A stretch of DNA of 35,332 nucleotides, taken from NCBI GenBank assembly GCA_964389675.1, contig CAYMEV010000008.1, forward strand, positions 107,084-142,415, given 5' to 3'. Origin of the DNA: an uncultured Candidatus Sumerlaeota bacterium (GTDB taxonomy: Bacteria > CAYMEV01). This document shows, piece by piece, positions 2,600 to 26,412 of this stretch (position 1 is the first letter of the stretch; every line of letters begins with the position of its first letter). The notes under the pieces were generated by a model. That model searched no databases, was not told the DNA's origin, and saw only the letters and a program-made list of their open reading frames with translations. The position numbers and the translations under genes are program-made.

Positions 2600-2623
2600 C
2601 AAAATAAAAAAAAAGCCTATAAT
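2596..2623 (+). promoter_or_regulatory. Sigma70-type promoter (TTGACA-N16-TATAAT) overlapping the cas6 stop
   Basis: Perfect -35 hexamer at 2596-2601 and -10 hexamer at 2618-2623, with 16-nt spacing. Confidence 0.55.
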
Positions 2624-2692
2624 TAAAAATACCATCCAAAAAAACATGCAAGCCCATCCTCTGGGGCTGATTTTACCGGGTCTCCTCTACTC

Positions 2693-2726
2693 CCTCAAAA
2701 GCTGATATTATTTTCAGCTTTTGAGG
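2693..2726. terminator. 13-bp perfect inverted repeat (terminator, attenuator or operator) between cas6 and cmr1
   Basis: CCTCAAAAGCTGA-(8 nt)-TCAGCTTTTGAGG. There is no clear U-tract on the + strand, so its function is uncertain. Confidence 0.4.
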
Positions 2727-2747
2727 CTGACCCGGGAGAAAAAGTAT

Positions 2748-2776
2748 TTGAATTTTATTTAAAAAAATATTATAAT
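2748..2776 (+). promoter_or_regulatory. Sigma70-type promoter for the cmr operon (TTGAAT-N17-TATAAT)
   Basis: Hexamers at 2748-2753 and 2771-2776, about 80 nt upstream of cmr1. Confidence 0.5.
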
Positions 2777-2855
2777 GAGTAAATAATCCTAATAATTTTA
2801 TAGGGGTTATGTTTCATTAGCGAAACTACTAATAAATTTAGTATTGGAGAAATAT

Positions 2856-3857
2856 ATGCAAAAATTAGATTTTAATTGTGAAATTGTAACACCAATGTTT
2901 GCAGGTGATGCAGAACCTACAGATGCAGCCATAAGGGCACAAACAATAAAAGGTCTTATGAGATTCTGGTGGAGGGCATATAATGCTACAAAATATAAAA
3001 CCATAATCGAATTAAGACAAAAAGAAGGTGAGATATTCGGTACTACTGAAGGGAATGGAAGAAAAAGCAGCTTTAAAATAATTGTGGATGCTGGTAACAT
3101 TAGGTCTACAAAGGAAAGCTTAATACAGGAAAAAGATTTAATGGTAAAGGTCGAAGGAAAAAATTTTAGTATTAACATACTTGAATATCTAGCATTTGGG
3201 CCCTGTCAATTTGGTAAAATTATAAGAAATTATTTTAGCCCTGAGAATATATTTAAAATGAAAATTGCCATAATGGATAATAAAAAAGAAGATGATATAA
3301 TTGATTCTCTCAAATTATTAGTATATTTTGGAGGAATTGGATCCAAATCAAGAAATGGCTATGGCAAGTTCAGGATAGGATTAACAGATAACTCTGACTA
3401 TAAAAAGTTACTGCAATTTAATGACATAATATCAAAAGCAAAAAACCTTTGCAAGGGATCAGGTAGTGTTGCAGAATTTCTATCATTTAATAAGGAATCT
3501 CATTTATATGAATTGAAAAATAGATATGACTCATGGTATAGATGCCTTGGGGAACTTGGGAAAATATACAGGCAAAGCAGGCTATCACTGGAAAAAAGAC
3601 ATGTCTATGAAAAAAGACAATATATAGGAGCACCTATAATAACCAAAGAAAAGCCAAAGCTCATCCTTGGTGAAAAAGAAAGAAAAGGTAAACCTTTTTT
3701 CTTAAATGTAATTAAAGTAGATAATTCATATCTCGGATATATTCTATACCTTCATTCTGAAAAGTACCATGAATCAAAAGGCAATAAAACAGACTATCTA
3801 AAAGTATTAAGAGAGGTCAACGAATACCTCTCTAAGGATATGAAAGCAATATTTTAG
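2856..3857 (+). CDS. cmr1: Type III-B RAMP protein Cmr1
   Basis: IVTPMFAG, IKGLMRFWWRA, EGEIFG and GGIGSKSRNGYG RAMP motifs. The ATG at 2856 follows a GGAG RBS and is preferred over the TTG at 2844 in the track. Confidence 0.92.
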   Translation: MQKLDFNCEIVTPMFAGDAEPTDAAIRAQTIKGLMRFWWRAYNATKYKTIIELRQKEGEIFGTTEGNGRKSSFKIIVDAGNIRSTKESLIQEKDLMVKVEGKNFSINILEYLAFGPCQFGKIIRNYFSPENIFKMKIAIMDNKKEDDIIDSLKLLVYFGGIGSKSRNGYGKFRIGLTDNSDYKKLLQFNDIISKAKNLCKGSGSVAEFLSFNKESHLYELKNRYDSWYRCLGELGKIYRQSRLSLEKRHVYEKRQYIGAPIITKEKPKLILGEKERKGKPFFLNVIKVDNSYLGYILYLHSEKYHESKGNKTDYLKVLREVNEYLSKDMKAIF

Positions 3858-3873
3858 ACTAAGGAGTATAAAT

Positions 3874-6624
3874 ATGAACAATAATGATTATATAGCACAG
3901 CTTCAAGCTTTTTTTCATGATCCCATAGATAAGCCTATAAACATTCACAATCATGAAAAACGTGCTGAAGAACAGATCTCTCAACTAGGACTTCAATATA
4001 ATAAACCTTCAGCATCAGATCATATTGCATCTGCTGCAGACAGGATACATTCATATAATGATAACCAGGGAAATACTATCCAGGTTAACTTTGACTCAGA
4101 AGGAGAGATTACGCATCCCCTCGGAAGCGGAGTTTTAAAGCTCACCGACCAGGGAGACCTTATGATCAACACTAAAAATGTAGCAGATAATATTACAAAA
4201 TATCTCCATGATCTTAAAGACAGATACAATGATAGCTATAAAGATATTATTATAAGACTTTGGAGAGAATTTCCTGAGAAAATAAAAACTGATGAGCTGC
4301 CTAACTATAGGCTTGGTAATCTGTGGGATTACCTTCCAGCTGACACAAGAATACCCGATCATTCTATCCTTTCTCACAACTGGCTCGTATCAGCAGTAGC
4401 TTCCTGCGGGGACAATATAATTTTTTCGAAATTTTCTATCGGTCCTGTTCAAAGCTTCATCTCAACTGCAAAAAGAACTGAAGATTTTTGGATGGGCAGC
4501 TACATGCTATCCTATCTGATTTCCCAAACAATAATATATATAATTGATAATTTAGGTCCACAACATATTATATTTCCTTATGTAAAAGGTCAGCCATTCA
4601 TAGATTATCATTTATGTGATAAATACCAAATAGAACTATATAACCAGAGTTCCCCTGATCACCATAAAAATTATAAATATAAGATCTACAATTCATCCCT
4701 TTCAAATGTCGTATTTTTTATATGCCCCGAGAAGGAATATAAACAAATAATTGAGAAAATTCAAAAATACATCATGGAAGAATGGGATAAATTATGCAGA
4801 GAAGCCCAAAAAAAATTCAGTTTCAATGATTATGCAAAGAAAATATTTAATGAACAAATAGGAAGCTTTTTAGAATTCAATTCTGCAGGAATAAAAATAG
4901 AATCATGTAATATTAACAACTTCTTAGATACCTATCAGAAAGCTGTTGGCAAAATTATGAAGCCAAAAAGCAATTACAAACCTAATATAGGAACATACTG
5001 GGACAATATATATGAATACCTTGATAAAGTATTTTCCTCCTCAAAATTAACAAAAAAATTTAACTATATCGAGGAAGAGGGCAGAAAATGCACATTATGC
5101 GGAGAGCATTCTGCAATTGCACCAGATGAAGAGACAAGCAACTCTACATCAAAACTTAAAGAATACTGGAAAGATCATACTAAAAACCTTGATTCATTCC
5201 GCATCGATAAGGATGGAAATGACAGATTGTGCGGAATATGCCTTACAAAAAGAATGGCTCTGGAATCATTTTTCAAGAACAAATACAAGGACTTGAACAC
5301 AGATATTAGTTTTCCTTCCCTTATGTCAATAGCATCATGGCCATTCAAACTTAAAGTAATAGAAAACTGGGAAACATATATAAAGAGCACCAATTATGCA
5401 AGCAGTAACAATAAAAAGCTAAAAGACATAGTAGAAGAATATAATCATTTAATAGACGAGAATGCTGAAAAAGTGCATCTACCCTATAATATAATTAAAA
5501 AGCTGAAAGATAAAACAAAAATCTTAGAGGGAAACACTGACACTAGAATGGAAAATTTTATGAGATATGATGGACAATGGATCTACATAGATGCAATAAA
5601 AAACAATAAGGATATTGATAAGAAAACAGCAGGAAAAATCATATCTTATCTTAAGACAATCTACTCCACAATAGGTGATAGACCCAACAAATACTATGCT
5701 ATAGTATCCATGGATGGAGATGAGATGGGAAAATGGCTATCAGCGACACATCCAAAATGGCCAAAATATAAAGATGTAGTACACTCTAAAATGAATCTCA
5801 ATCTCGCTGATAAAAAGCAGCTTGATGAGAAGATTAACCTATCTCCATCCTTGCATGCATTCATCAGTCATACTCTTAACAATTTTTCACTAAATACTGT
5901 AACCAGAATCGTAGAATCTGATTACCCGGGAAAGCTCGTCTATGCTGGTGGAGATGATGTACTTGCAATTTTACCCTTTGATTATGCGCTTGAATGCGCT
6001 GAAAAAATCAGATATTTCTTTTCAGGAAATGTAAACAAGAAGATGGAGATCGACTTAGACCAGAAAAGCGGATACTACAAAATTGGCAAGGATATTATGG
6101 CTACTATGGGAGATAGAGCAACAATGAGTGCAGGGATAGTCTATGCCCATTATAAATATAGCCTGCAATCAGCAATAAAAAAATCCAAATACTGCGAGAA
6201 GTCTGCTAAGACATTATGTGGTAGAGATGCATACTATATTTCGATCCTAAAGCATTCAGGAAGCGAAATACAGCTAGGTCTTAAATGGAAAATAAATAAT
6301 TCAAGATCTATAGATCTAATTAATAATATAGTAAAAAGTGCTGAAAACGGCAAACTTGCAATGAATTTTTTCTCCTCTGCTCACACTTTACTTAATAAAT
6401 TAGATAATTCTCAGATAGATATATTTAAATCTCTGCTGCATAGGGATATTAGAGACCACATAGTAAAGAAAAAAGACAAAGATGAGATATATAATACCAT
6501 TGAAAAATCATTTAAACCTATACTAGATAATCCACCAGAAAATTCAGATAGATCAAAAAAGGCTTTTCTGCTTAGCCTGCTCTTATGCATGCGCTTTCTA
6601 GCTTCTAAAGGAGGAAAAGAATAA
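3874..6624 (+). CDS. cas10: Cas10/Cmr2 large subunit with intact cyclase Palm motif
   Basis: N-terminal FHDP and DHIASAADR; PADTRIPDHS; IGPVQSFI; Zn finger CTLC...CGIC; DGDEMG and YAGGDDV. Confidence 0.96.
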   Translation: MNNNDYIAQLQAFFHDPIDKPINIHNHEKRAEEQISQLGLQYNKPSASDHIASAADRIHSYNDNQGNTIQVNFDSEGEITHPLGSGVLKLTDQGDLMINTKNVADNITKYLHDLKDRYNDSYKDIIIRLWREFPEKIKTDELPNYRLGNLWDYLPADTRIPDHSILSHNWLVSAVASCGDNIIFSKFSIGPVQSFISTAKRTEDFWMGSYMLSYLISQTIIYIIDNLGPQHIIFPYVKGQPFIDYHLCDKYQIELYNQSSPDHHKNYKYKIYNSSLSNVVFFICPEKEYKQIIEKIQKYIMEEWDKLCREAQKKFSFNDYAKKIFNEQIGSFLEFNSAGIKIESCNINNFLDTYQKAVGKIMKPKSNYKPNIGTYWDNIYEYLDKVFSSSKLTKKFNYIEEEGRKCTLCGEHSAIAPDEETSNSTSKLKEYWKDHTKNLDSFRIDKDGNDRLCGICLTKRMALESFFKNKYKDLNTDISFPSLMSIASWPFKLKVIENWETYIKSTNYASSNNKKLKDIVEEYNHLIDENAEKVHLPYNIIKKLKDKTKILEGNTDTRMENFMRYDGQWIYIDAIKNNKDIDKKTAGKIISYLKTIYSTIGDRPNKYYAIVSMDGDEMGKWLSATHPKWPKYKDVVHSKMNLNLADKKQLDEKINLSPSLHAFISHTLNNFSLNTVTRIVESDYPGKLVYAGGDDVLAILPFDYALECAEKIRYFFSGNVNKKMEIDLDQKSGYYKIGKDIMATMGDRATMSAGIVYAHYKYSLQSAIKKSKYCEKSAKTLCGRDAYYISILKHSGSEIQLGLKWKINNSRSIDLINNIVKSAENGKLAMNFFSSAHTLLNKLDNSQIDIFKSLLHRDIRDHIVKKKDKDEIYNTIEKSFKPILDNPPENSDRSKKAFLLSLLLCMRFLASKGGKE

Positions 6625-7742
6625 TGGATAAGAACTTTGGACTAAAAATTATACCTTATGATGTCTGCTATTTCCGCGGATCAAAACCATTCAGCAGGGG
6701 CTCAGAGCATTTTGCAGAGTCAGCTTTTCCCCCGAATCCATCAACACTGTATAATGCACTTAGAACTACAATTATAAACGAGAATAACATAAATATTAGA
6801 GATTTTTATAATAGTAATATTCCTGATAATATAAAAGAAGAAATCGGTACTGCAAATACAAATGGAGACCTGAGCATTAAAGGCATATTTCTATTTAAAG
6901 GCGAGACATATTCAATAATGCCATTTGATATTGTAAATAATTTAGATCAAGATTACAGGATTTTAAGATTGCATAAAGATGAAAATGTTATAATTTCTGA
7001 TAAATTACCTTATTTCCCATTTATTGCCGATACTTCATATAAATATTCTGGACAATATTTTTCCATTGAAAATCTTAAAAGCTATCTCTACTGTGAAAAC
7101 AGCTTTACACAGTCAGAAATCAAGGCTGAATCTGATTTTATCCTCAGGGATAAGCGCGTCGGTATAGGTATCGATAAAAATGCATCAATTGCTGGAGAAG
7201 GTCTGCTTTTTATAGCGCATGCAATAGAATTTAGCCCAGGATCATGCCTGTATGCAATTATAGAAAAATCAAGCTTATTGAAAAATGAAGGACTCATGAG
7301 GCTAGGCGGAGGATCAAGGCCATTTATTTATAAAAAAGAATCCGATATAACTAGCTTTGAGGACATAGATACCGATAAAATAAAAAGAATTATCTCCAAA
7401 ACAAAACGCTTTAAGGTAATCTTCCTTTCTCCATCTATCTCTAAAGAAGGATGGAAAAACACAGAAATTACAGACTGGACAACAAAAAATAATATAGAGA
7501 TGATTTCTGCACTAATTCAAAGACCAAAAAAGATAGGCGGATACAATATGGCTGAAAACAAGCCAAAACCAATGTACAACATGCTTCAGGCAGGTTCAGT
7601 CTATTATTTTGATATTAAAAACGAAATCTCAGATAATTTACTCGATTCAATCTTTGACTATTTTCATCTAAATAATCATACCGATATAAATAAAAACCAA
7701 GGTTTTGGTTTAACCGTTATAGGAGGATATAATGAAAAATAA
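6624..7742 (+). CDS. cmr3: Type III-B protein Cmr3 (Cas5 group)
   Basis: PYDVCYFRGSKPF, FPPNPSTLYNALRT, RLGGGSR, AGSVYYF and C-terminal GFG. Confidence 0.92.
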   Translation: MDKNFGLKIIPYDVCYFRGSKPFSRGSEHFAESAFPPNPSTLYNALRTTIINENNINIRDFYNSNIPDNIKEEIGTANTNGDLSIKGIFLFKGETYSIMPFDIVNNLDQDYRILRLHKDENVIISDKLPYFPFIADTSYKYSGQYFSIENLKSYLYCENSFTQSEIKAESDFILRDKRVGIGIDKNASIAGEGLLFIAHAIEFSPGSCLYAIIEKSSLLKNEGLMRLGGGSRPFIYKKESDITSFEDIDTDKIKRIISKTKRFKVIFLSPSISKEGWKNTEITDWTTKNNIEMISALIQRPKKIGGYNMAENKPKPMYNMLQAGSVYYFDIKNEISDNLLDSIFDYFHLNNHTDINKNQGFGLTVIGGYNEK

Positions 7743-8589
7743 AAAAAATGACTTATTGTTCTTTTATGCTCAGACCCCTGTACATTGTGGTAGTGGTTCA
7801 TCTCTCGAGGTCATAGATCTACCGATCCAGAGAGAGAAACATACAAATTATCCTATCTTCCAGGCTTCATCTATAAAAGGTACAATGCGCAGGTTCTATG
7901 ATGATGATAAAACAATCGAGCCAATTTTTGGGCCTGAATCAAATGCGGAATATGCATCATGCATTACTTTCACGGACGCCAGAATATTGCTATTTCCAGT
8001 GAAATCATTTAAGGATGTATTTGTTTGGATTACATGCCCCCACGTACTTAGGAGGCTTATAAATGACATGAAAAGTATTGGCCTTAGCTACAATACTGAG
8101 TTACCATCATCACTTGCTGATGATGAGGCTATAATAACAGGTGAAATAAAAAGAATATGCCACAATAACAAATTAATCCTGGATGAGTATGTGTTTAATC
8201 CAAAAAGCAGCCAACCTGTCGCAGAGATATTAGATTCTATTAGCCTTCCACACAAAGATGATGTGATGGATAAAACTGCAATCATATCGGATGATATGTT
8301 TAAGTACTTCGTAACAGCTGCAACAGATGTAGTAGCACGAACCTCAATAGACAAAGATACTGGAGTAGTAAAAGATGGACAGCTCTGGTATGAGGAATAT
8401 CTACCATCTGATTCTATACTCTACTCAATAGTCTTTGCTGAAAACTCAAGGAACGATAACAGTAGTAATCTTGATGGCGATACAGTACTGGTAAAAATCA
8501 AACAAAGCATTACAAAAATCATCCAAATAGGGGGAAATGAAACTATAGGCAAAGGCATAGTGCACCTATTCTGGAATAAGGAGGAATAA
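7732..8589 (+). CDS. cmr4: Type III-B RAMP backbone Cmr4
   Basis: TPVHCGSG, IDLPIQRE (conserved catalytic Asp position), SSIKG, DARILLFPV, LWYEEYLP and QIGGNETIGKG. Confidence 0.96.
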   Translation: MKNKKNDLLFFYAQTPVHCGSGSSLEVIDLPIQREKHTNYPIFQASSIKGTMRRFYDDDKTIEPIFGPESNAEYASCITFTDARILLFPVKSFKDVFVWITCPHVLRRLINDMKSIGLSYNTELPSSLADDEAIITGEIKRICHNNKLILDEYVFNPKSSQPVAEILDSISLPHKDDVMDKTAIISDDMFKYFVTAATDVVARTSIDKDTGVVKDGQLWYEEYLPSDSILYSIVFAENSRNDNSSNLDGDTVLVKIKQSITKIIQIGGNETIGKGIVHLFWNKEE

Positions 8590-8593
8590 CCCA

Positions 8594-8965
8594 ATGAATA
8601 AAACATTAGGACAGGAAAGAGCAAATTACGCTTTTAATTGCGTAAAAGATGCTAAAAAGGATTTCAACAGTGAAAAAAAATCAAAAGAATATAAAGTACT
8701 TGTAAAGGGTTTCCCCTCAATGATTGTCAACAATGGCCTCGGTCAGGCTTTGGCTTTCCTAAAAGCTAAAGGCAAAGATCATCATAGTGCTCTCTATAAA
8801 AATATTGATGATTGGTTTAAAAATCCAGCATCACCGATAACTATCAATAATACGGACATACTAAAGCATATCATTAATAGCACATCGTTAGACTACCGAT
8901 ATATTACTGAAGAGGCTCTGCTGTTAATAAACTGGTTTAAAAAATTTGTGGATGCAGAGATCTAA
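8594..8965 (+). CDS. cmr5: Type III-B small subunit Cmr5
   Basis: KTLGQERA..A, PSMIVNNGLGQALAFL and YRYITEEAL...WFKKF. Confidence 0.94.
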   Translation: MNKTLGQERANYAFNCVKDAKKDFNSEKKSKEYKVLVKGFPSMIVNNGLGQALAFLKAKGKDHHSALYKNIDDWFKNPASPITINNTDILKHIINSTSLDYRYITEEALLLINWFKKFVDAEI

Positions 8966-8989
8966 TAAAAAAACTAAGGAGCATGTAAT

Positions 8990-10156
8990 ATGCCAATACC
9001 AATAAATTCTAGCTTAAAGAATGCTATTGAAAATGTAAATAGATTTAAGGAATCATCGAATTTAAATCTTCTCTTTAACAAATACATTTATAACTGGGAT
9101 GAAAATCAAGGTTATCAGAGCAAAAACAAGCATATTTTTCTAAAAACTATTTCTGAAACTTTTAATAGCAAAAATGTTTCTATGAATAAGAGTTATGAGT
9201 TTTTTATTAAAAAATGGAAAGATACTATAAATAAAATGCATAACTCTGTTGCTTTAACTGCTAATAACTTGACAAGACTCACTGTAGGGCTGGGAAATGA
9301 AACAATCCTGGAGAATTCTATCACACTGAATAATACTTGGGGATTTCCTTATATTCCGGGTAGCGCTTTAAAAGGTGCAGTAAGAGCATACTATATAAAT
9401 AAAATATCAGAAGATATCACAGAACTAGCACCTAATGATATTGATGATCTTATCTCACTATCAGATAAGGATTTCGCAAATAAGAATGCCGAAATAAAGA
9501 CAAATAAAAGCATCCTGTCTGCACGCAGGATATTTGGAACAAAGGATAAGGAAGGTGCAATAATCTTCTTTGATGCGTACCCGACAAAGTTTCCACTTCT
9601 AAAAGTAGATATAATGAATCCTCACTTTCTAAGTTATTACAGCAATAAAGAAAATAATAATCCCCCACCTGGCGACTGGGAAAACCCCGTTCTAATTTAT
9701 TTTATTACTGTTAAAGAAAATCAGCAGTTTCTTTTTGCATATTCGACAAGACATAATTATAATTTAGATGAAGTTGACCTTGGCCAATTAAAAGAATATA
9801 TCAAAGCAACACTTATAGAACATGGTATAGGAGCTAAGACATCAGTAGGCTATGGTTTCTTTTCAAAAATAGCCTATATCGAAAAAGAAGCTCCAAAAGA
9901 TCCGCCTAAACCACAGAAAAAACTCTCAGAAATTGAACAATTAGCATTTGATATTGAGAATAAATACAATGATAGCGATATCGGTAATTTCTTTATTAAA
10001 CTTGATCAATATTCAGGGGATGACCTGAAGACAATAGCACAAGCACTCAAAAAGCATTTCATTAAAAATAAGAAGTGGGCAGGATCAAAGCTAAGCAGAA
10101 AGCAAAAAGAAAAAATAGCTAAAATTAATACTATATTAGGAGAAGATAATAACTAG
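8990..10156 (+). CDS. cmr6: Type III-B RAMP protein Cmr6
   Basis: RLTVGLG, GFPYIPGSALKG, FFDAYP, DIMNPH, PGDWENP and GIGAKTSVGYG. Confidence 0.95.
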   Translation: MPIPINSSLKNAIENVNRFKESSNLNLLFNKYIYNWDENQGYQSKNKHIFLKTISETFNSKNVSMNKSYEFFIKKWKDTINKMHNSVALTANNLTRLTVGLGNETILENSITLNNTWGFPYIPGSALKGAVRAYYINKISEDITELAPNDIDDLISLSDKDFANKNAEIKTNKSILSARRIFGTKDKEGAIIFFDAYPTKFPLLKVDIMNPHFLSYYSNKENNNPPPGDWENPVLIYFITVKENQQFLFAYSTRHNYNLDEVDLGQLKEYIKATLIEHGIGAKTSVGYGFFSKIAYIEKEAPKDPPKPQKKLSEIEQLAFDIENKYNDSDIGNFFIKLDQYSGDDLKTIAQALKKHFIKNKKWAGSKLSRKQKEKIAKINTILGEDNN

Positions 10157-10494
10157 CCAAAGAAATAATTTATAAATTTATTCTTGAAGTAAATTCTCGG
10201 TCTTTACAATTTTGTTTTATTACTGACCTATTTATAAATAATTTGTTTTCTGTTGCAATGTAATTATGATTTTTAAATAATATTAATAAGAAAACACATG
10301 ATTACAATAAGTTGATATTTTTATAATATATAGCTATATATCTTCTCATTGAAGTTTTGAAATTCCTAAAATCGAGAATAATAATTGTTTAGACTGATTT
10401 ATAAAAATTACCTTAGGAGGTAATTTAAAAAATGACATTATCTTTTAAAATTGATATAATACAGCCGAGATACAGAGACAAAAAAGACATGAGG
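10157..10494 (+). promoter_or_regulatory. CRISPR leader with putative array promoter
   Basis: AT-rich region with no long ORF next to the non-degenerate end of the array. It contains ATGACA(10432)-N17-TATAAT(10455) with an extended -10 TG, and a 9-bp inverted repeat at 10405-10426. Confidence 0.75.
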
Positions 10495-13400
10495 GGATAG
10501 ATAGGTACCTTGATGAATAAAGGATTGCGACAGAGAGCCGGGTCGCCCAGTGCACCCGGTTTATCTGCACAGGATAGATAGGTACCTTGATGAATAAAGG
10601 ATTGCGACTTTAAGTCCGGTTCTTTTTAGACAAAAAAAAAGAACCGGTCAGGATAGATAGGTACCTTGATGAATAAAGGATTGCGACGCCTCAAGATCCA
10701 GGCAGTCTATACTGCATTGACTAAAGGATAGATAGGTACCTTGATGAATAAAGGATTGCGACAAAAGTCACGGAGTCAACGATCTCCCGATGTAATTCTA
10801 GGATAGATAGGTACCTTGATGAATAAAGGATTGCGACTTTTTCCTTTTTTTAGTTTAATTAAAAATAATGTCTAAAATAGGATAGATAGGTACCTTGATG
10901 AATAAAGGATTGCGACTCTTAGACAAATGTGTTCGTAGTCGATGATTATCCGTTCTGCAAGGATAGATAGGTACCTTGATGAATAAAGGATTGCGACGCG
11001 ACTAAAGACTGACAGAGCTTATCAAGTCTTGATATTTATGGTAAGGATAGATAGGTACCTTGATGAATAAAGGATTGCGACTTTCGGTATATAATGGTTC
11101 CTTATATCAAGAAACCATTGGATAGATAGGTACCTTGATGAATAAAGGATTGCGACATAAAGCCCCCCCCTTTGTCATTCCTCCTCAAGAGATTCGGATA
11201 GATAGGTACCTTGATGAATAAAGGATTGCGACTTGCACCCAGAGAAGTTTACAATAATCTTATCTGCTGTCATGGATAGATAGGTACCTTGATGAATAAA
11301 GGATTGCGACTCTAAAGTCCGCAACATGCGGATAGCTGCGGACTTATTGAGGATAGATAGGTACCTTGATGAATAAAGGATTGCGACTTCATCAACCCTC
11401 GCTTTCTCAAATATTTCATTGAGGACATTATCCGGATAGATAGGTACCTTGATGAATAAAGGATTGCGACAATAGATAAATTCTCTTATACTGTTGTGTT
11501 TCAGGTTAAAAGGATAGATAGGTACCTTGATGAATAAAGGATTGCGACTATAATCAAGGTTCTTCCTAAATTGCTGAAGCCTGTATGCAAGCGGATAGAT
11601 AGGTACCTTGATGAATAAAGGATTGCGACGGATTCCGCTCTATGCGTGAGTTTTTCCATAATTATCGGATAGATAGGTACCTTGATGAATAAAGGATTGC
11701 GACTGAATTAATTTTTTTCATTTTCTTTACTCCTTTTCATTGGATAGATAGGTACCTTGATGAATAAAGGATTGCGACTTTTATCTTGTCATAGCTGACT
11801 TGGAATTCTTTCAGCGTGTTCGGATAGATAGGTACCTTGATGAATAAAGGATTGCGACTTTGTAAAACAAGGCGTCCATAGCCTCTGTTATTCCTACGGA
11901 TAGATAGGTACCTTGATGAATAAAGGATTGCGACTTAAAATCCCTGAACAATTTTAACTTTTTGTTGTAGATAGGAGAGGATAGATAGGTACCTTGATGA
12001 ATAAAGGATTGCGACTTTTAATAATACTAACATTACTTTTTCTCCTTTTGTTTTTTTGGATAGATAGGTACCTTGATGAATAAAGGATTGCGACCCTTAT
12101 TTATGTATGTGATTTTGTTTTTATTTATACTCATTATAGGATAGATAGGTACCTTGATGAATAAAGGATTGCGACGAAAATCTTTCCAAATTTTCCTTAT
12201 TTATGTATGTGATTTGGATAGATAGGTACCTTGATGAATAAAGGATTGCGACTTGCCTTAAGCTTGCATACAAGCTTAAGGTATCTGAGCCATGGATAGA
12301 TAGGTACCTTGATGAATAAAGGATTGCGACATATAAAGGATTATCAATGAAGATAAAATTTTTATAATAACTTCGGATAGATAGGTACCTTGATGAATAA
12401 AGGATTGCGACCTATCTTCCAGGACGGCATATTTCCGTTTGCCCTTTTCCTCAGGGATAGATAGGTACCTTGATGAATAAAGGATTGCGACCTCTTCTTC
12501 AAGATCTCTAACGGTTTTGATTATCTTCTGGATAGATAGGTACCTTGATGAATAAAGGATTGCGACAGGTTTTTAATAGAAACTAATTCTGAACCCAATA
12601 TAATGGATAGATAGGTACCTTGATGAATAAAGGATTGCGACATGTAATAAGTTGAATATATCTCAGGATAGTGTTAATGATAGGATAGATAGGTACCTTG
12701 ATGAATAAAGGATTGCGACTTTTGTTTTTAATTCTTCCATTTCTTTTCTCCTTTTGGGATAGATAGGTACCTTGATGAATAAAGGATTGCGACTATTTAT
12801 GTATTTAATAAAGCTCATTTCCTATCTCCAATGGATAGATAGGTACCTTGATGAATAAAGGATTGCGACCAGTCCTGCTCTGAGTGTCCATGCTGGTAGA
12901 TTTAATTGGATAGATAGGTACCTTGATGAATAAAGGATTGCGACTTGAAACGCTCTGAAATTGCCTTGATTTCAGCAATCCTTTTCTGGATAGATAGGTA
13001 CCTTGATGAATAAAGGATTGCGACTTAAACCTATCAATAGAAAGAATTTTACCTAAACCTCGGATAGATAGGTACCTTGATGAATAAAGGATTGCGACTA
13101 AAGTCGTGCTTAAAGGCAACGACGTAGTAATATTTTTTATTCGGATAGATAGGTACCTTGATGAATAAAGGATTGCGACTTTTCTATAAAAATCTTTGAG
13201 GCTCATTTGGGCAGGTTCGCCGGGATAGATAGGTACCTTGATGAATAAAGGATTGCGACTGATTTGCTCCTTGTTCAATTCATGGTTGGTAATAGGATAG
13301 ATAGGTACCTTGATGAATAAAGGATTGCGACTTTTCCTCAGCTCAATTAATGGATCATTTACATGAGCTGGATAGATAGGTACCTTGATGAATAAAGGAT

Positions 13401-14036
13401 TGCGACGGATACAATCCTAAAGTTAGCCCTCCGATACTGTAAAAATTTGGATAGATAGGTACCTTGATGAATAAAGGATTGCGACTCGTCTCTGAGTAAA
13501 TCAATTATTTGTTTATATATCTTATAACAGGATAGATAGGTACCTTGATGAATAAAGGATTGCGACTGGATAGTAATGCCTTTATGGCTTTTTCAAGCCT
13601 TCTTGTTCGGATAGATAGGTACCTTGATGAATAAAGGATTGCGACTTCTTTCATACGCATCCTCCGTTCTAATAATTTATTATTAAGGATAGATAGGTAC
13701 CTTGATGAATAAAGGATTGCGACTCTGTAGCGAGCTTGACGAGTTTTACTAAGTGCCTATTTTCTTGGATAGATAGGTACCTTGATGAATAAAGGATTGC
13801 GACTATACGCTATCTCCCTCACTATTTCCTCTAATCTATTATACAGGATAGATAGGTACCTTGATGAATAAAGGATTGCGACTTATCCACCTCTGTTTTT
13901 ATGAATATTTTTGTGAAACTATCAAAGATAGATAGGTACCTTGATGAATAAAGGATTGCGACTTTTAATATCTTTCTTTATAGTCTTTGATTTCTTTTTC
14001 GATAGATAGGTACCTTGATGAATAAAGGATTGAGAC
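10495..14036 (+). CRISPR. CRISPR array with 46 repeats of 37 bp (GGATAGATAGGTACCTTGATGAATAAAGGATTGCGAC) and 45 spacers of about 35-47 nt
   Basis: Counted by eye. The last two repeats are degenerate (first base changed; terminal repeat ends GATTGAGAC), which marks the trailer on the right. A CCTT/AAGG stem is followed by an 8-nt ATTGCGAC 5'-tag, and spacers are T-rich on the + strand, as expected if antisense to mRNA. Confidence 0.99.
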
Positions 14037-14366: not shown

Positions 14367-15788
14367 TTAATCAGATTCCCCTAAGGATAATTCTATATTC
14401 TCAACCTCTGCAAAGAACTGAATAAGCTCATCAACAAATCTCTTAAATCCCTTATAATTATTTTCTGTAACAAAGGAAAAACCGTGAGCAAGGACACTAA
14501 AATTACGGTTCTTTAAATGGCTCTGCATCCTTTTTAATGAGAGAGATATTCTTTTTGACAGGCTCAGATCGTCATTAATTGCCTGTAAAATGATATAGCC
14601 TGATATCAGGCTTATCTCTGAAGGGAGAATGGAAACAGACTGCAGGCCTGCAGATTTTCTTATCCTGTTAATCTCTGTAAGAAGATCATTATTATTTAGT
14701 TTTATTTTGCTGTAATCAGGCTTTGCTGTATCAATATCGTACAGGGCAAATCTTCTCTGTTCAAGTATCTCAATGAGTCTGTACAGATAAAGGGAGGCAG
14801 CATCCAGCCTGCCTAAAGCTGCTCTCTTCATAGCATTTTTATATATTATCTGAATAAGCTCTTTCACAGCTTTTTTGTCCTTTAGAAGTTCCAGAGAACT
14901 GTCCCCTGGATTCTTTGGAATAAGGGAAGAGAGATGCAGAAGATCTTCGGTCTTTTTATCCCATTTTTCGCGTAATTTGCCGTAATATTGCCGCTCCAGT
15001 AAATTGGCTTCTTTTATGAGCCCAGCGCTTTCAGATATATTCAGCAGATCTAATTGGTGCAGGGCTTCGGCATGTTTGTATTTTATCATGTATTTCAGAG
15101 GTTCGCGACATTTCTCGCTGAGTTCTCTGTATATTTCTGAAGCACCTCTGTAGTCATAATGCTGAAGCAGGATGTCTGCATTTTTTTCCCTGAGTGTCCC
15201 AAAAACCGCATAGGGGTTATCTATAAATTCCAGATATTCAGAACCAGGCCTAGGTCGCCTTAATTCTTTGAGATAATCTCTATTTCCTATATAAATAAGC
15301 TGAAAATTAAGAAGTGCACCAACCATTGCCAGACCACTGGTCATAGTTTTTTTGCCTGCAGTAATATCTACTGCTATCTTTTTTATACCGCGGTCCTGCC
15401 AGGCATTATAGATGTTTTGAACATTTTTATATATTGAAATGGGGAATGGTTCTACTATCATCTCTTTTTCATAGCTTGATGGCTTTATCTGAGTAAAACT
15501 AATAACCTTATCAAGAGATTGCTCTGATTCTTCGGTACACAGGAAGAGTATCCTTTTTGGTTTAATTGTACTCAAAGACATAATGACAGGCTCCGGGGAT
15601 GTACCGACAGTCATTATAAGACCATCAAAATTTATCTCCTCCAGCTTTTTTTCTTCTTTTATAACAAAATTTCTAAATACTATAGGGAATATCTTTTCCT
15701 CGTAAAACCTATCAAGCTGTTCTTTTGCAGACCCTGTGGCCTTTGCAATCTCTAACCATTGGTTAGTAAGTTTTTTCAATTCATCCAT
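14367..15788 (-). CDS. CARF-HEPN ancillary ribonuclease (TIGR02710 / Csx1-Csm6-like)
   Basis: CARF motifs TVGTSPEP and VDITAGKKTM; C-terminal HEPN motif RNFSVLAHG; YRLIE. Confidence 0.85.
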   Translation of the reverse strand: MDELKKLTNQWLEIAKATGSAKEQLDRFYEEKIFPIVFRNFVIKEEKKLEEINFDGLIMTVGTSPEPVIMSLSTIKPKRILFLCTEESEQSLDKVISFTQIKPSSYEKEMIVEPFPISIYKNVQNIYNAWQDRGIKKIAVDITAGKKTMTSGLAMVGALLNFQLIYIGNRDYLKELRRPRPGSEYLEFIDNPYAVFGTLREKNADILLQHYDYRGASEIYRELSEKCREPLKYMIKYKHAEALHQLDLLNISESAGLIKEANLLERQYYGKLREKWDKKTEDLLHLSSLIPKNPGDSSLELLKDKKAVKELIQIIYKNAMKRAALGRLDAASLYLYRLIEILEQRRFALYDIDTAKPDYSKIKLNNNDLLTEINRIRKSAGLQSVSILPSEISLISGYIILQAINDDLSLSKRISLSLKRMQSHLKNRNFSVLAHGFSFVTENNYKGFKRFVDELIQFFAEVENIELSLGESD

Positions 15789-15794
15789 GGATAT

Positions 15795-17051
15795 CTACTC
15801 CTTCCTTATATTTATTGCCCTATAAGATTCCCTCTGTTTTTTTTTATCAAATGATGGGGTAATGTCAAATATTACTTTTTGCTCGCGGGATATACCTTCA
15901 GGGAGATCCTTTGTAAAACAGAAATAGGATTCGCTGCCCGATTTAATAAAACAGAAAGGTTTTTCAGGGGATATTGAGATAACTTTCCCCTTTAGGTCTT
16001 TTTTTTCATTGCCGGCTGAGGGCTTTCCCTTCAGCCATTCTTTTTTGCATGCTTTCAGGAGTTCATCAATTGTGAATTCTTTTTTCGGGGTTTGAAAGAA
16101 GCTTGATAATTCCTGCAGAGATGCGGACAGCGATTCAGGCATGTTCCAGCCCTTTTCCTCTCTGACCAGCTTTGAAAGCATAAAATGAAAGAAACTCATT
16201 TCATATTGCTCTAAGTCCTTATAGACTCTGCCAAGGTTCTGCATAAGAACCACTTTCATGTCAAGCTTGGGCATTAGACTTGAAGATAAAAGCAGCATGG
16301 GAAGTGCTTTTTCAGGGCAGCCGGTCTCTGCAATAATCTGGCCATATTCATTCAGAATCCACCAATCGGGATGCGGCGTATTGCAGAGAGCTTCATAAAT
16401 CTTAAGTGCCTGTTCGGTGTTTTTAAGGTTATAGAAGGCTTTAGCTTTCAAGCGGAGAAAAAACTTCTTTTGTCTGGGGAATTTATCTATGATTGTCTCT
16501 ATAAGCTCTATGGCTTTGTTATCATCATTGCTGTTAATTAATGATTCTGCATTATAATAATACCACATTGCCCTGTCGCTCCAGTCAGATTTTGTATTTG
16601 TGCTGTTGGGTTTATTATCAAGATCAGCCGGGTTAATAAGGTCTATGTTCTCCTTGATAAAATCAAAACGCTTTGATTTTTTGGCTTCTTTGAATAACTT
16701 AAGCAGAGAGACCTTGAGTGCTGTAATATCAGGCTTTAATGCCTTTATCTTTTCAAAGGCTGTATCTTTGGAATTAAAATCTGCAGAAACATCCATTAGT
16801 ATTCCCTGTATATAGCTCCATATCATCTCGTTCCTGCACCATGCAATATCCTGCAGTTCTGGCGGAATTGCATCAGCTATGCTTATTGCTTCGGCAAATT
16901 TTCTCTGTTTTCTAAGGCAATGCAAGTATCCTGCAGCATCATAGCCATCTTTTGTATCAGATGACTCATAAAGCTCTTTGTATATTGCTTCTGCCTGTTC
17001 ATACTTCTGGTTCTTTCTCAGGTTATTGGCCATTTGCTTTTTAGTATCCAT
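15795..17051 (-). CDS. TPR-repeat protein with a C-terminal cold-shock/OB-fold nucleic-acid-binding domain; function unknown
   Basis: Helical TPR-like repeats throughout. The C-terminus LKGKVISISPEKPFCFIKSGSESYFCF...KVIFDI...YRAINIR resembles a CSD/S1 fold. Confidence 0.7.
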   Translation of the reverse strand: MDTKKQMANNLRKNQKYEQAEAIYKELYESSDTKDGYDAAGYLHCLRKQRKFAEAISIADAIPPELQDIAWCRNEMIWSYIQGILMDVSADFNSKDTAFEKIKALKPDITALKVSLLKLFKEAKKSKRFDFIKENIDLINPADLDNKPNSTNTKSDWSDRAMWYYYNAESLINSNDDNKAIELIETIIDKFPRQKKFFLRLKAKAFYNLKNTEQALKIYEALCNTPHPDWWILNEYGQIIAETGCPEKALPMLLLSSSLMPKLDMKVVLMQNLGRVYKDLEQYEMSFFHFMLSKLVREEKGWNMPESLSASLQELSSFFQTPKKEFTIDELLKACKKEWLKGKPSAGNEKKDLKGKVISISPEKPFCFIKSGSESYFCFTKDLPEGISREQKVIFDITPSFDKKKQRESYRAINIRKE

Positions 17052-17062
17052 AATTCTTTACC

Positions 17063-17356
17063 TCATACTATAATTAAATCATCAAATTCTGTTTTTGTGC
17101 TGAGCCCTGATACCTGTATTGCCGCCTGGCACCTGGAGCAGAGCGAATAATACCTTATGCTGTCCTCTTCAAAATCTATTACCTTCTCAAGTTTGTAACG
17201 CATCTTTATGTACTGATTATAGGTTATGCGGCAGTCGAATACGCTTTTCTGGACCCTTACTCCATAGCTCTTCATTATCTTGGCTACCTTTGCCCTTTTC
17301 CTGTCATCTATTATGTCGTAGCAGACAACTATATACAGAATATTATTCATAGACAT
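17063..17356 (-). CDS. cas2: CRISPR adaptation protein Cas2
   Basis: VVCYDIIDDRKRAKVAK...YGVRVQKSVFDC...DSIRYYSLC. Confidence 0.97.
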   Translation of the reverse strand: MSMNNILYIVVCYDIIDDRKRAKVAKIMKSYGVRVQKSVFDCRITYNQYIKMRYKLEKVIDFEEDSIRYYSLCSRCQAAIQVSGLSTKTEFDDLIIV

Positions 17357-18392
17357 AAGGCTGATAATCAGCCTCTCCCCTCAGGCATTTTACAAAAAGC
17401 CTTATCTGTCTTCTAATAATGTCCCTGTAAGACATGTTCTTCTCCTCCCTGGAATAGTACTCCTCCTTTAAAAGATAGCTCTTGAGCGATACTATAAATG
17501 TCTTTATACCTTCATGGGTCAATCTGACAGGCATGTCTTCCTTGTTATATTCAGTCTCTTCATCGGGGTCAAAATCATCAAGGTCCTCTTTTGAAATAAA
17601 AAAATGCGAAAGCCTTATTCTTTTCTGATTAATCAGCTTTATTACAAGCCTGTCAATAATTAGAGGCCTGAACTCCTCCATCAGGTCAAGGACCAATGAA
17701 GGCCTGCCGTATTTCATGGAATGCAGAGATCCCAGATAGGGATCGAGCCCTGTTATATTTATAGCCTGCTGTACCTCATTGGCCAGTAGAGCATAACCAA
17801 AACTAAGCAGTGCATTGAAAGGATCCTTGGGAGGTCTCCTTGTCCTTTTTTCTATATGGAACTCAGGGGGTTTTATAAGTTTATTGAAAACAGAGAAATA
17901 TACCCTCGCGGCATCCCCCTCATATCCCATGAGGGTATCCAGGTCCTCTGCAATGTTCAGTTTAGGCAGTCTGAATTTTAGGCTTCTTATAACCTCGGTT
18001 ATCTTAATATCCCGTATTACATAATTATGCTTGCGCAGGACTACCATCTCATTTTTAATCTTTGCTTCTATTATTGCTCTTGACTGAACCAGTTTGAACG
18101 AGTCATCTGAGAGCCTGGAGAACTGCAGTTTTCTGAGTTCGATATTTTTACCCCACTGGGTCAGAAGCCTTCCCCTGTATCTGCCGTATACAGTTAGGAA
18201 TACAGTGTCTATTCCCTTCTCCAGGAGAAAAGCTATGCAGGAGGTAGTAATGTTTACATTGCCGAATATTACCACCTGTTCAATATTAAAGTGATGCACC
18301 CATTGTATTGCCTCACCATTCTTCTTTACATAAAGCCTGTTCTGGCTCTTGTGAAGTGAAGCGCCCTGATCTGTCACATACATTACAGACAT
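17343..18392 (-). CDS. cas1: CRISPR integrase Cas1 (no RT fusion)
   Basis: LMGYEGDAARVYF, RTRRPPKDPFNALLSFGY, GLDPYLGSLH and LVLDLMEEFRP. Confidence 0.98.
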   Translation of the reverse strand: MSVMYVTDQGASLHKSQNRLYVKKNGEAIQWVHHFNIEQVVIFGNVNITTSCIAFLLEKGIDTVFLTVYGRYRGRLLTQWGKNIELRKLQFSRLSDDSFKLVQSRAIIEAKIKNEMVVLRKHNYVIRDIKITEVIRSLKFRLPKLNIAEDLDTLMGYEGDAARVYFSVFNKLIKPPEFHIEKRTRRPPKDPFNALLSFGYALLANEVQQAINITGLDPYLGSLHSMKYGRPSLVLDLMEEFRPLIIDRLVIKLINQKRIRLSHFFISKEDLDDFDPDEETEYNKEDMPVRLTHEGIKTFIVSLKSYLLKEEYYSREEKNMSYRDIIRRQIRLFVKCLRGEADYQPYVYE

Positions 18393-18394
18393 AG

Positions 18395-20278
18395 CTACAG
18401 TACCAGGAGAAACCTAGTTTTTCCATCAGCATCCTTTATTCTCTGAAGTTTTGCAAAGGATGCCGAGAGCTCCTCTATATCCTGGCTGTCAAAGTAGTCG
18501 TTAAATATATCCTCCAGCCTCTGCATTCTTTTATCAAGGACAGAAAGGTCCTTTTTTGTCTGCATATAGTCCTTGATAGCCTTTTCCAGCTGAAGCTGGC
18601 TTACAATACCGGACTGAGGCTGTCCGCTTATATGCATCAGCGGAGTAGGATATATAGCAGAGTTTGAATCATAGGCGCATGAACAGTTGACTTTGCTTGT
18701 GATATCCGGTATTTTTTTTCGGATCTTCGGACAGCTCATTGGATTTCCGGAGAATTTTGACTGCATGAGATATGAATCGTTGCAATTAATGCATGAGTGC
18801 AGGATGTAATTTACAATATTTGCTCCGTTTTTCAGGTGACCCAGGGTGTGCCTTATTACGAGCTGTTCTTCATTATTAAGCTCTCTGTAAGTAAGGGCAT
18901 TATTGTAGAGCTTCTCTATGACAGAGCATTTAGATAATATTGATTGAAACTCAATGTCAGAGTCAGGGTCAAAAACCTCAGCCGGCTGTGAAGGCATCTC
19001 AGTTTCTTTGCCTTCCTTGTGGGTATCTACTTCCCACGGAACATCATCCTCATTATCATGCGAATATGACTCAGCATAGGGACTGTTGCTTGCTATGGCA
19101 GCTTGAAGCATATCAATGTCTGCTCTTTTTATTCTGGTTAAGAACAATAGCTGATCATCATAATAGCTGTCATTGGAGGGGTCCATGAACAGGCATCTCT
19201 TCCCCGTCCTTCTGTGGATCCCCAGAGGTATTTTAATAAGGTTTCCGTAGTTTTTAGCTTTTACATAGCTCTGTTTGGGAAAAATCTCGATACCGAAAGC
19301 CTCATCTATACTAATTGATGATATCACTGCTTTGCAAAATTCCCTTGCAATCTTTGCTGGTACCGGGGAAGCAAGGAATATCCATACATGATAGCCCTTA
19401 TACCCGCTATCCTCAAGGTAGCATGGTATTTCAGAGGATGACAGCCTGTCAACTATGCCTTTTGCTACCTTAAGCCCCCTCTTCTGATATTGTTTTAATT
19501 TATCTTCATCAGAGATAATATTCTTCAAGAATACTTTTTTTATATCTATATCAAACGCTATAAATCTGACTGTATTATCCATCCTTAGCTGGTATATGCC
19601 AACAGTGTGATTTCCAAGAATATGGTTTTTTGCAACTATATGGGTAAACGGCTGAGATTCCTTTGAATACCCTGATTCACCAGTGGGACTTACCCACTGT
19701 TTTGCGTATACACCCTCTCTTCCGCTGAAGAGTTCAGCAAATGCTATTAAATAACTGTCATCAAGCCTCTCAAGGTGAAGATGATCTTTATCAACTGAAT
19801 TTTCAACGATCTCCTTCCCAGCAACAAGTTGAGCACCAACTATCAGACTGTCGTAGCTCTTTTTATTGAACTGTTCTTTTGCTTTTTTATATATCCTGCT
19901 TGCTTCCTCATACATATTATTATCCTTAAGGAGGCTTCCATAAAGCAGGTAGACCTTTTCCTGGTTTGGATCACGCTCTATGATAGCTTTATAATTCTTT
20001 ATCGCCTTTTTGACATTGCCGAAATCACTGTGCAATTCAGCAAGCTTATAATGAATATCGACAGGATCATCAGAACTGGAAAGAGCAAGGTTGAGCTCAG
20101 TTACCTGCTCCTTATAAAGACCTGCCTGGTCTAGCAGATCTGCAAGAGCTATGTGAAAATCCCTGTCCCTTATGCTTTTTGTGTCATACCTGCTGTAGAT
20201 CTCTGCTATAATTTCGATATTTTCTTCATCAAGGGCTTTCTGCACCTCTTCAATAAGAACACCGGTATTCTTATCCAT
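18395..20278 (-). CDS. CRISPR-associated primase-polymerase (CAPP; TPR + AEP Prim-Pol + Cys-rich PriCT-like domain)
   Basis: N-terminal TPRs; AEP motifs FDIDI, SGYKGYHVWIF, EIFPKQ and GNLIKIPLG; C-terminal Cys cluster (KC...MSCPKIR...CSC); located directly upstream of cas1. The start is placed at 20278 (MDKN) after a GGAGG RBS, whereas the track starts at 20305. Confidence 0.88.
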   Translation of the reverse strand: MDKNTGVLIEEVQKALDEENIEIIAEIYSRYDTKSIRDRDFHIALADLLDQAGLYKEQVTELNLALSSSDDPVDIHYKLAELHSDFGNVKKAIKNYKAIIERDPNQEKVYLLYGSLLKDNNMYEEASRIYKKAKEQFNKKSYDSLIVGAQLVAGKEIVENSVDKDHLHLERLDDSYLIAFAELFSGREGVYAKQWVSPTGESGYSKESQPFTHIVAKNHILGNHTVGIYQLRMDNTVRFIAFDIDIKKVFLKNIISDEDKLKQYQKRGLKVAKGIVDRLSSSEIPCYLEDSGYKGYHVWIFLASPVPAKIAREFCKAVISSISIDEAFGIEIFPKQSYVKAKNYGNLIKIPLGIHRRTGKRCLFMDPSNDSYYDDQLLFLTRIKRADIDMLQAAIASNSPYAESYSHDNEDDVPWEVDTHKEGKETEMPSQPAEVFDPDSDIEFQSILSKCSVIEKLYNNALTYRELNNEEQLVIRHTLGHLKNGANIVNYILHSCINCNDSYLMQSKFSGNPMSCPKIRKKIPDITSKVNCSCAYDSNSAIYPTPLMHISGQPQSGIVSQLQLEKAIKDYMQTKKDLSVLDKRMQRLEDIFNDYFDSQDIEELSASFAKLQRIKDADGKTRFLLVL

Positions 20279-20433
20279 TAAGATACCCCTCCTCCAATAA
20301 GACATCTTTGTACTAATAAATTATAATACCTTATATGCTGATAATCAAGTCAAAATATAAAATTTTCCTGAATTTTATTCCATAAAATCCGATTGATCAT
20401 ATAATGAAGAAAGTAATATAAAGGGAGGCTGAA

Positions 20434-20811: not shown

Positions 20812-20812
20812 A

Positions 20813-24800: not shown

Positions 24801-24891
24801 TGCAATTACCTCTTAAAATTATATAATCAGGATAATCTCTCTTCTAAATCAAGTCAATAAAACACGGCTGATAAAATTATCCAGATTCTAA

Positions 24892-25446: not shown

Positions 25447-25462
25447 ATTACCCTCCTTGATA

Positions 25463-26164: not shown

Positions 26165-26412
26165 AAAGAGATCTCTCTGTATTAGTATAAATCACATTAT
26201 ACACTAAGTGCTTAAAAATATAAAAGACTAAAAATGCATAAGCATGAATTTGTATTCTCTGATTAATTCTGAATTATGCTTTTTCATGCATTCTCTGTAT
26301 ACAGTTAATCCAAGCCCTAAATATAATATATAATGCATATTTTATTTATAACTACCGGATCGGCCATTTAAATGCTATAATAAGCATAAAGCTGAAAGAG
26401 AAGGTTGTATTT

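Follow-up and report, generated by a model that had tools for sequence, protein, structure and literature searches.

Spacers antisense to putative gene starts in a natural type III-B CRISPR array with a primase-polymerase adaptation module

Results

A type III-B locus with a 45-spacer array

We analysed a stretch of DNA of 35,332 nt (hereafter the window) from an uncultured Candidatus Sumerlaeota bacterium (GenBank assembly GCA_964389675.1, contig CAYMEV010000008.1, positions 107,084 to 142,415 of the forward strand). On its + strand lies a complete type III-B (Cmr) CRISPR locus with a leader and an array of 45 spacers, followed by an adaptation operon that encodes a CRISPR-associated primase-polymerase (CAPP) together with Cas1 and Cas2. 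Six spacers of this array read in the reverse complement like gene starts, a pattern that we found in type III arrays in general and did not find in a type I-E array of the same genome. The organism's phylum is represented by two genomes, the present one and one congener, in a set covering 199,900 species. The main features are as follows.

1646..10156, + strand: cas6 and the type III-B effector genes cmr1, cas10/cmr2, cmr3, cmr4, cmr5 and cmr6 (Pfam; NCBIfam TIGR02577 for Cmr2 and TIGR02580 for Cmr4)
10157..10494, + strand: AT-rich leader of 338 nt between cmr6 and the first repeat, abutting repeat 1 (sequence)
10495..14036, + strand: CRISPR array of 46 repeats of 37 nt and 45 spacers of 35-47 nt (sequence)
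15795..20305, - strand: adaptation operon of CAPP type A1, cas1, cas2 and a TPR protein gene (Pfam; NCBIfam)

The effector assignment is supported by NCBIfam matches of 236.6 bits for Cmr2 (TIGR02577, cut-off 79.4) and 241 bits for Cmr4 (TIGR02580), and by the Pfam domains Cmr2_N, Cas10 palm2, Cas_Cmr3, Cas_Cmr5 and RAMPs. We read the array on the + strand because its repeat ends in ATTGCGAC, the leader lies upstream and the last repeat, which is degenerate and ends in ATTGAGAC, lies downstream. The 3' end ATTGCGAC is common to most CAPP-linked arrays, and we take it to be the 8-nt 5' tag of type III-B CRISPR RNAs (crRNAs). A spacer as written on this strand is the guide part of the crRNA.

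Six spacers resemble translation-initiation regions in the reverse complement

The spacers that carry the argument are listed below, each with the reading of its reverse complement around a Shine-Dalgarno (SD) sequence and a start codon.

11157..11195, + strand: sp9, GAGGAGGA-ATG-ACA-AAG; the TGA of an upstream frame overlaps the ATG (ATGA)
11704..11741, + strand: sp16, AAAGGAG-N8-ATG-AAA-AAA-ATT; the TAA of an upstream frame lies 5 nt before the ATG
12016..12057, + strand: sp20, AAAGGAG-N8-ATG-TTA-GTA; the TAA of an upstream frame overlaps the ATG (TAATG)
12720..12756, + strand: sp29, AAAGGAG-N7-ATG-GAA-GAA-TTA
12794..12832, + strand: sp30, GGAG-N7-ATG, then MSFIKYIN; an in-frame TAG lies one codon upstream of the ATG, with an ATGA overlap
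13646..13686, + strand: sp41, GGAGG-N6-ATG-AAA-GAA after an AT-rich stretch with stops
12095..12138, + strand: sp21, an ATG follows after the first 4 nt and the reading is MSINKNKITYINK; 21-nt overlap with sp22
12176..12215, + strand: sp22, extends the sp21 frame (ITYINKENLERF)

We counted a spacer as carrying the gene-start motif when it held a 5-nt SD core, a gap of 3-10 nt, an ATG and a frame open to the end of the spacer. Under this strict rule the motif occurs in the reverse complement of 6/45 spacers and in the forward direction of none (0/45). A looser, ATG-only rule returns the same 6 versus 0, and the loosest rule 10 versus 2. These "gene starts" are read from the spacer sequences alone; on that reading, the crRNAs of the six spacers would be antisense to the translation-initiation regions of SD-using, tightly packed genes on mobile elements. 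The six are scattered over the array, from position 9 to position 41, and their ATG lies 14-32 nt from the 5' end of the protospacer. sp20 and sp29 have a 13-nt SD context in common.

The initial annotation of this DNA had described sp9, sp16, sp20, sp29, sp30 and sp41 as a ribosome-binding site (RBS), an ATG and an open frame, and had pointed to an AAGGAG in sp36 and to ATGs in sp10, sp15 and sp21. All the strings quoted for the six are present in the reverse complements, and the further elements are present too. Its spacer coordinates are right to within 1 nt, a trailing G being the first base of the repeat. Its claim of an antisense-to-mRNA polarity also holds: the array is on the + strand, and the motif is split 6:0 between reverse complement and forward direction here and 77:8 in the other type III arrays described below, an asymmetry in agreement with RNA targeting.

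Three of the listed spacers appear to be related to one another. Joined and read from the ATG, sp21 and sp22 give MSINKNKITYINKENLERF and cover +1 to about +60 of one open reading frame (ORF), and sp30 has 11 nt in common with both. The latter appears to be a variant of the sp21/sp22 gene start (MSINKNKITYINK... versus MSFIKYIN). Thus sp21, sp22 and probably sp30 would all fall within the first ~60 nt of a single gene family, which suggests that related elements were sampled more than once at the same 5' gene end.

One spacer, sp24 (12331-12374), reads in the forward direction as AAAGGA-N6-ATG, with a stop after five further codons. It does not satisfy the open-frame rule and is left out of the counts; it may be a spacer of "wrong" polarity or contain a very short ORF. 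Stop codons in all three frames were found in 5/45 spacers in each direction and give no strand signal. TTT starts 10/45 spacers, and the target-sense strand is 59% purine (40% A); this may stem from an end or flank preference of the integrase or simply from the composition of mRNA.

Motif frequency compared with even sampling of host and phage DNA

Random 35-47-mers of the host genome, taken from either strand, carry the motif at a rate of 1.76% (at most 3.5% if all were sense), for which P(>=6/45)=0.005. Among sense-strand 40-mers of three phages of 36-45 kb, the rate is 1.9% for CD2301 (P=0.0002), 3.1% for GBK1 (P=0.0025) and 3.1% for Javan411 (P=0.0024). The region from 7 to 50 kb of a fourth phage, Tsamsa, reaches 6.0% (P=0.05). 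The observed 6/45 (13%) is well above even sampling of ordinary phages and only mildly above that of a region of tiny genes, a moderate excess overall.

The same motif is common in other type III arrays

For a set of CAPP-linked arrays, an alignment of CAPP homologues was used to collect 80 CAPP loci from public genomes, which yielded 33 arrays; almost all of their repeats end in GATTG(C/A)(G/A)AC in the direction of the CAPP gene. Two control sets comprised arrays beside Cmr3 loci in 400 genomes across the bacterial domain (control set 1) and arrays beside Cas10 loci in genomes without an AEP-TOTE match, from the phylum richest in CAPP loci (control set 2). Three CAPP-set arrays of uncertain direction (L027, L058 and the first array of L079) were left out, as were four control arrays (48 spacers) that could not be oriented and arrays with repeats shorter than 33 nt, L156 included. 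Two nominally CAPP-less control loci with divergent CAPP-like genes (L199 and L250, 18 spacers) were set apart; these genes have 23-30% identity and were missed by the Pfam AEP-TOTE search.

The Pfam AEP-TOTE matches in the control genomes fall into three groups. A very strong group (E about 1e-100, ORFs of 800-1000 aa) probably represents primases of TOTE conflict systems. Matches of middling strength (1e-35 to 1e-52, ORFs of 500-680 aa), often at most 10 kb from cas10, are CAPPs. Weak partial matches (1e-12 to 1e-22) also lie beside cas10.

Across all other oriented type III arrays, the antisense motif occurs in 77/1531 spacers (5.0%) and the forward motif in 8/1531 (0.5%). The asymmetry recurs in the individual array sets, with reverse complement to forward splits of 43:4, 12:4 and 28:2. 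Against the pooled rate of 5.0%, the count in the present array has P(>=6/45)=0.024. Among AT-rich arrays (spacer G+C <=0.36), 19/196 spacers (9.7%) carry the antisense motif and 0/196 the forward motif, and the present array then has P=0.27. Of the 23 other arrays that hold 25 spacers or more, two (one CAPP-linked, one CAPP-less) reach a rate of 13.3% or higher.

The rate does not depend on the primase-polymerase: 43/909 spacers (4.7%) of the CAPP-linked and 34/622 (5.5%) of the CAPP-less arrays carry the antisense motif (Fisher p=0.55), and a CAPP-specific gene-start bias was therefore rejected. We also rejected a fixed place of the start codon within the spacer, of the kind expected for capture like that guided by a protospacer-adjacent motif or linked to an end, because the ATG is unphased in the pooled arrays. 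Together, these counts suggest that such a frequency of gene-start spacers is usual among type III arrays and peculiar neither to this locus nor to CAPP. In a limited full-text search we found no paper on the SD or start-codon content of natural type III spacers across taxa.

A type I-E array of the same genome differs

Outside the window, on contig C9 (about 45.6-54.5 kb), the genome encodes another CRISPR system. It is of type I-E (Cse1 E=1e-88) and has a Cas1 of its own; its array, in which a 29-nt repeat occurs 47 times, yielded 44 usable spacers of 32-33 nt. The SD+ATG motif occurs in 6/45 spacers of the type III array versus 0/44 of the type I-E array in either direction, a comparison of low power (Fisher p=0.026). 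Cut to 32-nt windows, the type III spacers show the motif at 8.1%, which predicts 3.6 motif spacers among 44; the probability of finding none is 0.024. Perfect stems of at least 6 bp are present in 12/45 type III spacers (19.0% of their 32-nt windows) versus 0/44 type I-E spacers. Mean spacer G+C is 32.9% in the type III and 41.9% in the type I-E array (Mann-Whitney p=5e-5), with a genome value of 40.0%. Within a single cell, then, the memory of the RNA-guided system is AT-rich and abounds in gene starts and hairpins, which is not the case for the DNA-guided one.

Searches for the targets of the spacers

Searched against the INPHARED phages, the whole array matched 14 records, none with E<0.09; against the PLSDB plasmids it gave 3 matches, none with E<0.3. 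In both collections these are chance-level matches of low-complexity spacers. No spacer matched its own genome over more than 28 nt. A comparison of the array with 60 other genomes returned only short low-complexity matches with E of 2e-4 or worse, those in the congener being repeat-like sequence. Exact cores of 21-26 nt from sp41, the sp21/sp22 overlap, sp9 and sp1 had 0 matches in IMG/VR, and the cores of sp41 and of the sp21/sp22 overlap had 0 matches in JGI metagenomes. A prophage search of the organism's own genome with Phage_portal and TerL_ATPase gave no matches. This failure to map the spacers is not surprising, because the phylum has two genomes in the set and the genome no recognisable portal or terminase gene. 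The congener, whose CAPP on a 2.9-kb contig is 83% identical, also carries diverged repeat-like sequence.

The CAPP operon and hairpin-forming spacers

The adaptation operon and the gene that separates it from the array are resolved as follows.

14367..15788, - strand: CARF-HEPN effector of the Csm6 family, adjoining the distal end of the array (Pfam PF09670; NCBIfam TIGR02710)
15795-17051, - strand: TPR protein gene after cas2 (Pfam)
17063-17356, - strand: cas2 (NCBIfam TIGR01573)
17343-18392, - strand: cas1 (NCBIfam TIGR00287)
18395-20305, - strand: CAPP type A1 (NCBIfam NF040561, 356.2 bits, cut-off 200)

The gene order is CAPP-cas1-cas2-TPR, with ends that overlap or abut. Homologues of the CAPP carry the name "CRISPR-associated primase-polymerase type A1", and in an alignment of 21 homologues, the present one included, D243, D245 and H297 are invariant; these we take to be the AEP catalytic residues.

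We scored a spacer as hairpin-forming when it contained a perfect stem of at least 7 bp with a loop of 3-20 nt. Six spacers qualify.

10609..10650, + strand: sp2, hairpin spacer with a 12-bp perfect stem
11082-11119, + strand: sp8, stem of at least 7 bp
11311-11350, + strand: sp11, stem of at least 7 bp
11935-11978, + strand: sp19, stem of at least 7 bp
12253-12293, + strand: sp23, stem of at least 7 bp
12945-12987, + strand: sp32, stem of at least 7 bp

For comparison with these 6/45, host k-mers qualify at a rate of 3.0% (P=0.002) and phage k-mers at 3.5%. Among the CAPP-linked arrays 101/909 spacers (11.1%) form such hairpins, versus 1.6% of composition shuffles and 3.9% of flanking host DNA. 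The corresponding figures are 6/225 (2.7%), 0.9% and 2.1% for control set 1, and 26/508 (5.1%), 1.7% and 3.1% for control set 2. At the level of arrays the median share is 7.7% for CAPP-linked and 2.7% for CAPP-less arrays (Mann-Whitney p=0.004). After related or overlapping spacers had been merged, hairpins made up 88/844 spacers in CAPP-linked versus 32/701 in CAPP-less arrays (p=1.5e-5; array-level p=0.007), and with the two richest arrays removed the odds ratio was 1.8 (p=0.012). CAPP-linked arrays are thus 2-3 times richer in hairpin-forming spacers than CAPP-less ones, which we treat as a lead, not a result: the arrays are phylogenetically non-independent, those with CAPP were picked beside adaptation genes and the controls beside effector genes, and "CAPP-less" status rests on incomplete assemblies. 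Two CAPP-linked arrays, L030 (26/88) and L078 (19/71), are hairpin extremes in which the same hairpins were sampled repeatedly.

The locus is also unusually rich in accessory genes of the cyclic-oligoadenylate type (14367-15788 and 20434-30546; Pfam). Besides the CARF-HEPN protein of the Csm6 family they include Card1, a Cas_APE2256 protein and a CARF-adenosine deaminase fusion (22683-24800, - strand). They are followed, at 26413-30546, by a gene for a 1377-aa protein with cyclase, AAA_16 and TPR domains.

Discussion

We consider it fairly probable that two processes shaped this array: the retention of those spacers alone that are antisense to mRNA, and a type III adaptation biased towards the starts of transcribed genes, towards short early genes and towards hairpins. 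In a first step, Cas1-Cas2, here together with CAPP, would take spacers from DNA; protection would come only from crRNAs that pair with mRNA, and the array would in this way become almost purely antisense to genes. It is the strand asymmetry that points to such a retention of antisense spacers. In a second step, by analogy with the published III-A systems discussed below, type III adaptation would sample unevenly and prefer the starts of transcribed genes, early regions with short genes, and DNA that can fold into hairpins. For the present genome this step is suggested by the contrast with its type I-E array, relative to which gene starts and hairpins are up and G+C is down. Acquisition from RNA is not required.

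Several observations weigh against this explanation. The searches described above found no protospacer for any of the 45 spacers, which leaves the six gene starts unverified. The motif rule was drawn up with the six examples already in view, which flatters the count. The four baseline phages were taken from chance matches of the spacer search and are a rough yardstick; moreover, in one of them an early block of ~280-bp genes (Tsamsa) has a motif rate of 8.0%, at which P(>=6/45)=0.15 without any adaptation bias. In 79 motif-bearing spacers from other arrays, the ATG position does not depart from even sampling (Kolmogorov-Smirnov p=0.38), and the published peak at +10 to +50 is not visible. Four of the six spacers (sp9, sp16, sp20 and sp30) resemble stop/start junctions inside packed operons, not promoter-proximal first genes, as judged by eye and with chance resemblance possible in AT-rich sequence. 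In addition, the type I-E array may simply remember different elements.

Much of this would fit an account without any adaptation bias, in which compact elements full of very short genes are sampled evenly, spacers survive only if antisense, and 6/45 falls in the upper tail. The two Tsamsa rates, 6.0% and 8.0%, place P(>=6/45) at 0.05-0.15, the mean for AT-rich type III arrays is 9.7%, the ATG is unphased inside spacers and four of the six spacers resemble junctions of packed genes; because of these last two points, dense short genes could explain much of the excess. The same account predicts about 3.6 motif spacers in the type I-E array, where 0/44 were found, and does not predict the richness in hairpins or the 9-point lower G+C relative to that array. 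The three ordinary phages reach only 1.9-3.1%, and a true bias of adaptation has been demonstrated experimentally in Streptococcus thermophilus (PMC8860593, PMC13575424). We therefore regard even acquisition as a possible but rather less than probable explanation. Selection after acquisition would act at another point: crRNAs against RBS regions might protect better, because nascent RNA is unstructured and ribosome-free there or because translation is blocked, and would be kept longer. The six spacers, at positions 9 to 41, include old, retained ones, and the similar rate with and without CAPP is as would be expected if the effector and not the adaptation module decided. However, the start-proximal and early-gene bias of S. 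thermophilus is reported in strains without interference (PMC13575424, PMC8860593), and the hairpin and G+C differences from the type I-E array are left unexplained, so that we think selection of this kind unlikely to be the cause.

Copying of spacers from RNA, for example from the 5' parts of transcripts with CAPP in place of a reverse transcriptase (RT), is an idea to which the strong strand asymmetry, the position of CAPP within the cas1-cas2 operon and the reported existence of CAPP-RT fusions elsewhere (PMC10415136) lend some appeal. Yet characterised CAPPs are described as incorporating dNTPs poorly on RNA templates and as not priming efficiently on RNA (PMC8211822). In Pfam searches no RT domain was found among the 23 ORFs of the window, and the genome's only RVT_1 match is weak (35 bits) and lies on contig C34, away from all three Cas1 matches (on C8 and C9). 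Four of the six spacers look internal to polycistronic RNA, not like 5' ends, and CAPP-less arrays show the same asymmetry and rate. Because the window lacks an RT, the characterised CAPPs make poor use of RNA templates and CAPP-less arrays behave alike, capture from RNA is very improbable. The weak RVT_1 match itself spans C34 377-865, within a 627-aa open frame at the start of the contig.

These comparisons also bear on the remaining claims of the initial annotation. Its statement that six of 45 looks high for random sampling is borne out against ordinary phages, but the number is not special, as other type III arrays are similar. The transcript-linked acquisition without an RT that it had proposed agrees in spirit with the published, transcription-dependent capture of DNA near gene starts in type III-A; the part of the idea that involves capture from RNA is unsupported. 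The comparison of arrays with and without CAPP, for which it had called, revealed no difference, and the same bias is present in type III arrays generally, an outcome that the annotation itself had named as one that would refute its reading.

The closest known parallel comes from S. thermophilus and its type III-A adaptation. Zhang et al. (2021, PMC8860593) describe, in the part of their paper that bears on adaptation, spacers that enter in both orientations with a strand bias made by selection, an uptake that favours hairpin-forming DNA and an enrichment of spacers near start codons with a peak 10-50 nt downstream. According to the corresponding part of Noble-Molnar et al. (2026, PMC13575424), the type III system, and not the co-resident type II system, takes spacers during phage infection mainly from just downstream of an early promoter. 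This hotspot is reported to depend on transcription, being lost when the -10 box is destroyed, to be independent of interference and to be enhanced by a block of translation. The present array resembles that system in its enrichment of gene starts and hairpin DNA without an RT and with a strand bias attributed to selection, as well as in the absence of the bias from a co-resident DNA-targeting CRISPR system. It differs in several respects. The S. thermophilus studies concern plain Cas1-Cas2 and newly acquired spacers with known targets; here a natural III-B array with CAPP-Cas1-Cas2 is considered, and its gene starts are deduced from the spacers. The S. thermophilus peak also lies 10-50 nt inside the ORF, whereas the six spacers span the SD sequence and the ATG.

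As for the adaptation module, the window resembles the CAPP module of Marinitoga piezophila: a gene for a TPR-AEP primase-polymerase immediately precedes cas1-cas2, and a type III-B locus lies alongside. Relative to the CAPP-Cas1-Cas2 module, the TPR gene that follows cas2 is an additional partner. The part of the M. piezophila paper on which we draw (Zabrady et al. 2021, PMC8211822) deals with biochemistry and integration, not with natural spacer content, and reports that CAPPs depend on DNA templates and work poorly on RNA templates. RT-Cas1 systems, which acquire spacers from RNA (for example that of Marinomonas mediterranea; see also bioRxiv 10.1101/2023.09.01.555893), are likewise type III-associated adaptation modules with a link to transcripts. 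Unlike them, the present locus has no RT beside Cas1, and the same spacer pattern occurs in CAPP-less arrays.

The hairpin lead raises the further idea that CAPP changes type III memory, with CAPP modules capturing hairpin-forming single-stranded DNA about 2-3 times more than CAPP-less ones, and with gene-start and hairpin spacers as two signs of capture from transiently single-stranded, transcribed DNA. CAPP might, for example, fill in or prime on folded single-stranded DNA that becomes exposed during transcription or replication. We put this idea forward tentatively and think it rather improbable.

How an RNA-guided system that stores DNA spacers gains useful guides is an open question in type III biology, to which the two studies of S. 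thermophilus III-A, in the parts cited here, give the answer of a transcription-linked adaptation bias (PMC8860593, PMC13575424). The array described here is a natural, non-laboratory example, of type III-B and with CAPP, from an almost unsampled phylum. The pool of 1531 spacers suggests that gene starts are a shared feature of type III arrays, whether or not CAPP is present. In this respect the locus is ordinary, and it gives modest support to the generality of the published bias; the hairpin excess of CAPP-linked arrays, if true, would be the first hint from natural arrays of the role of CAPP.

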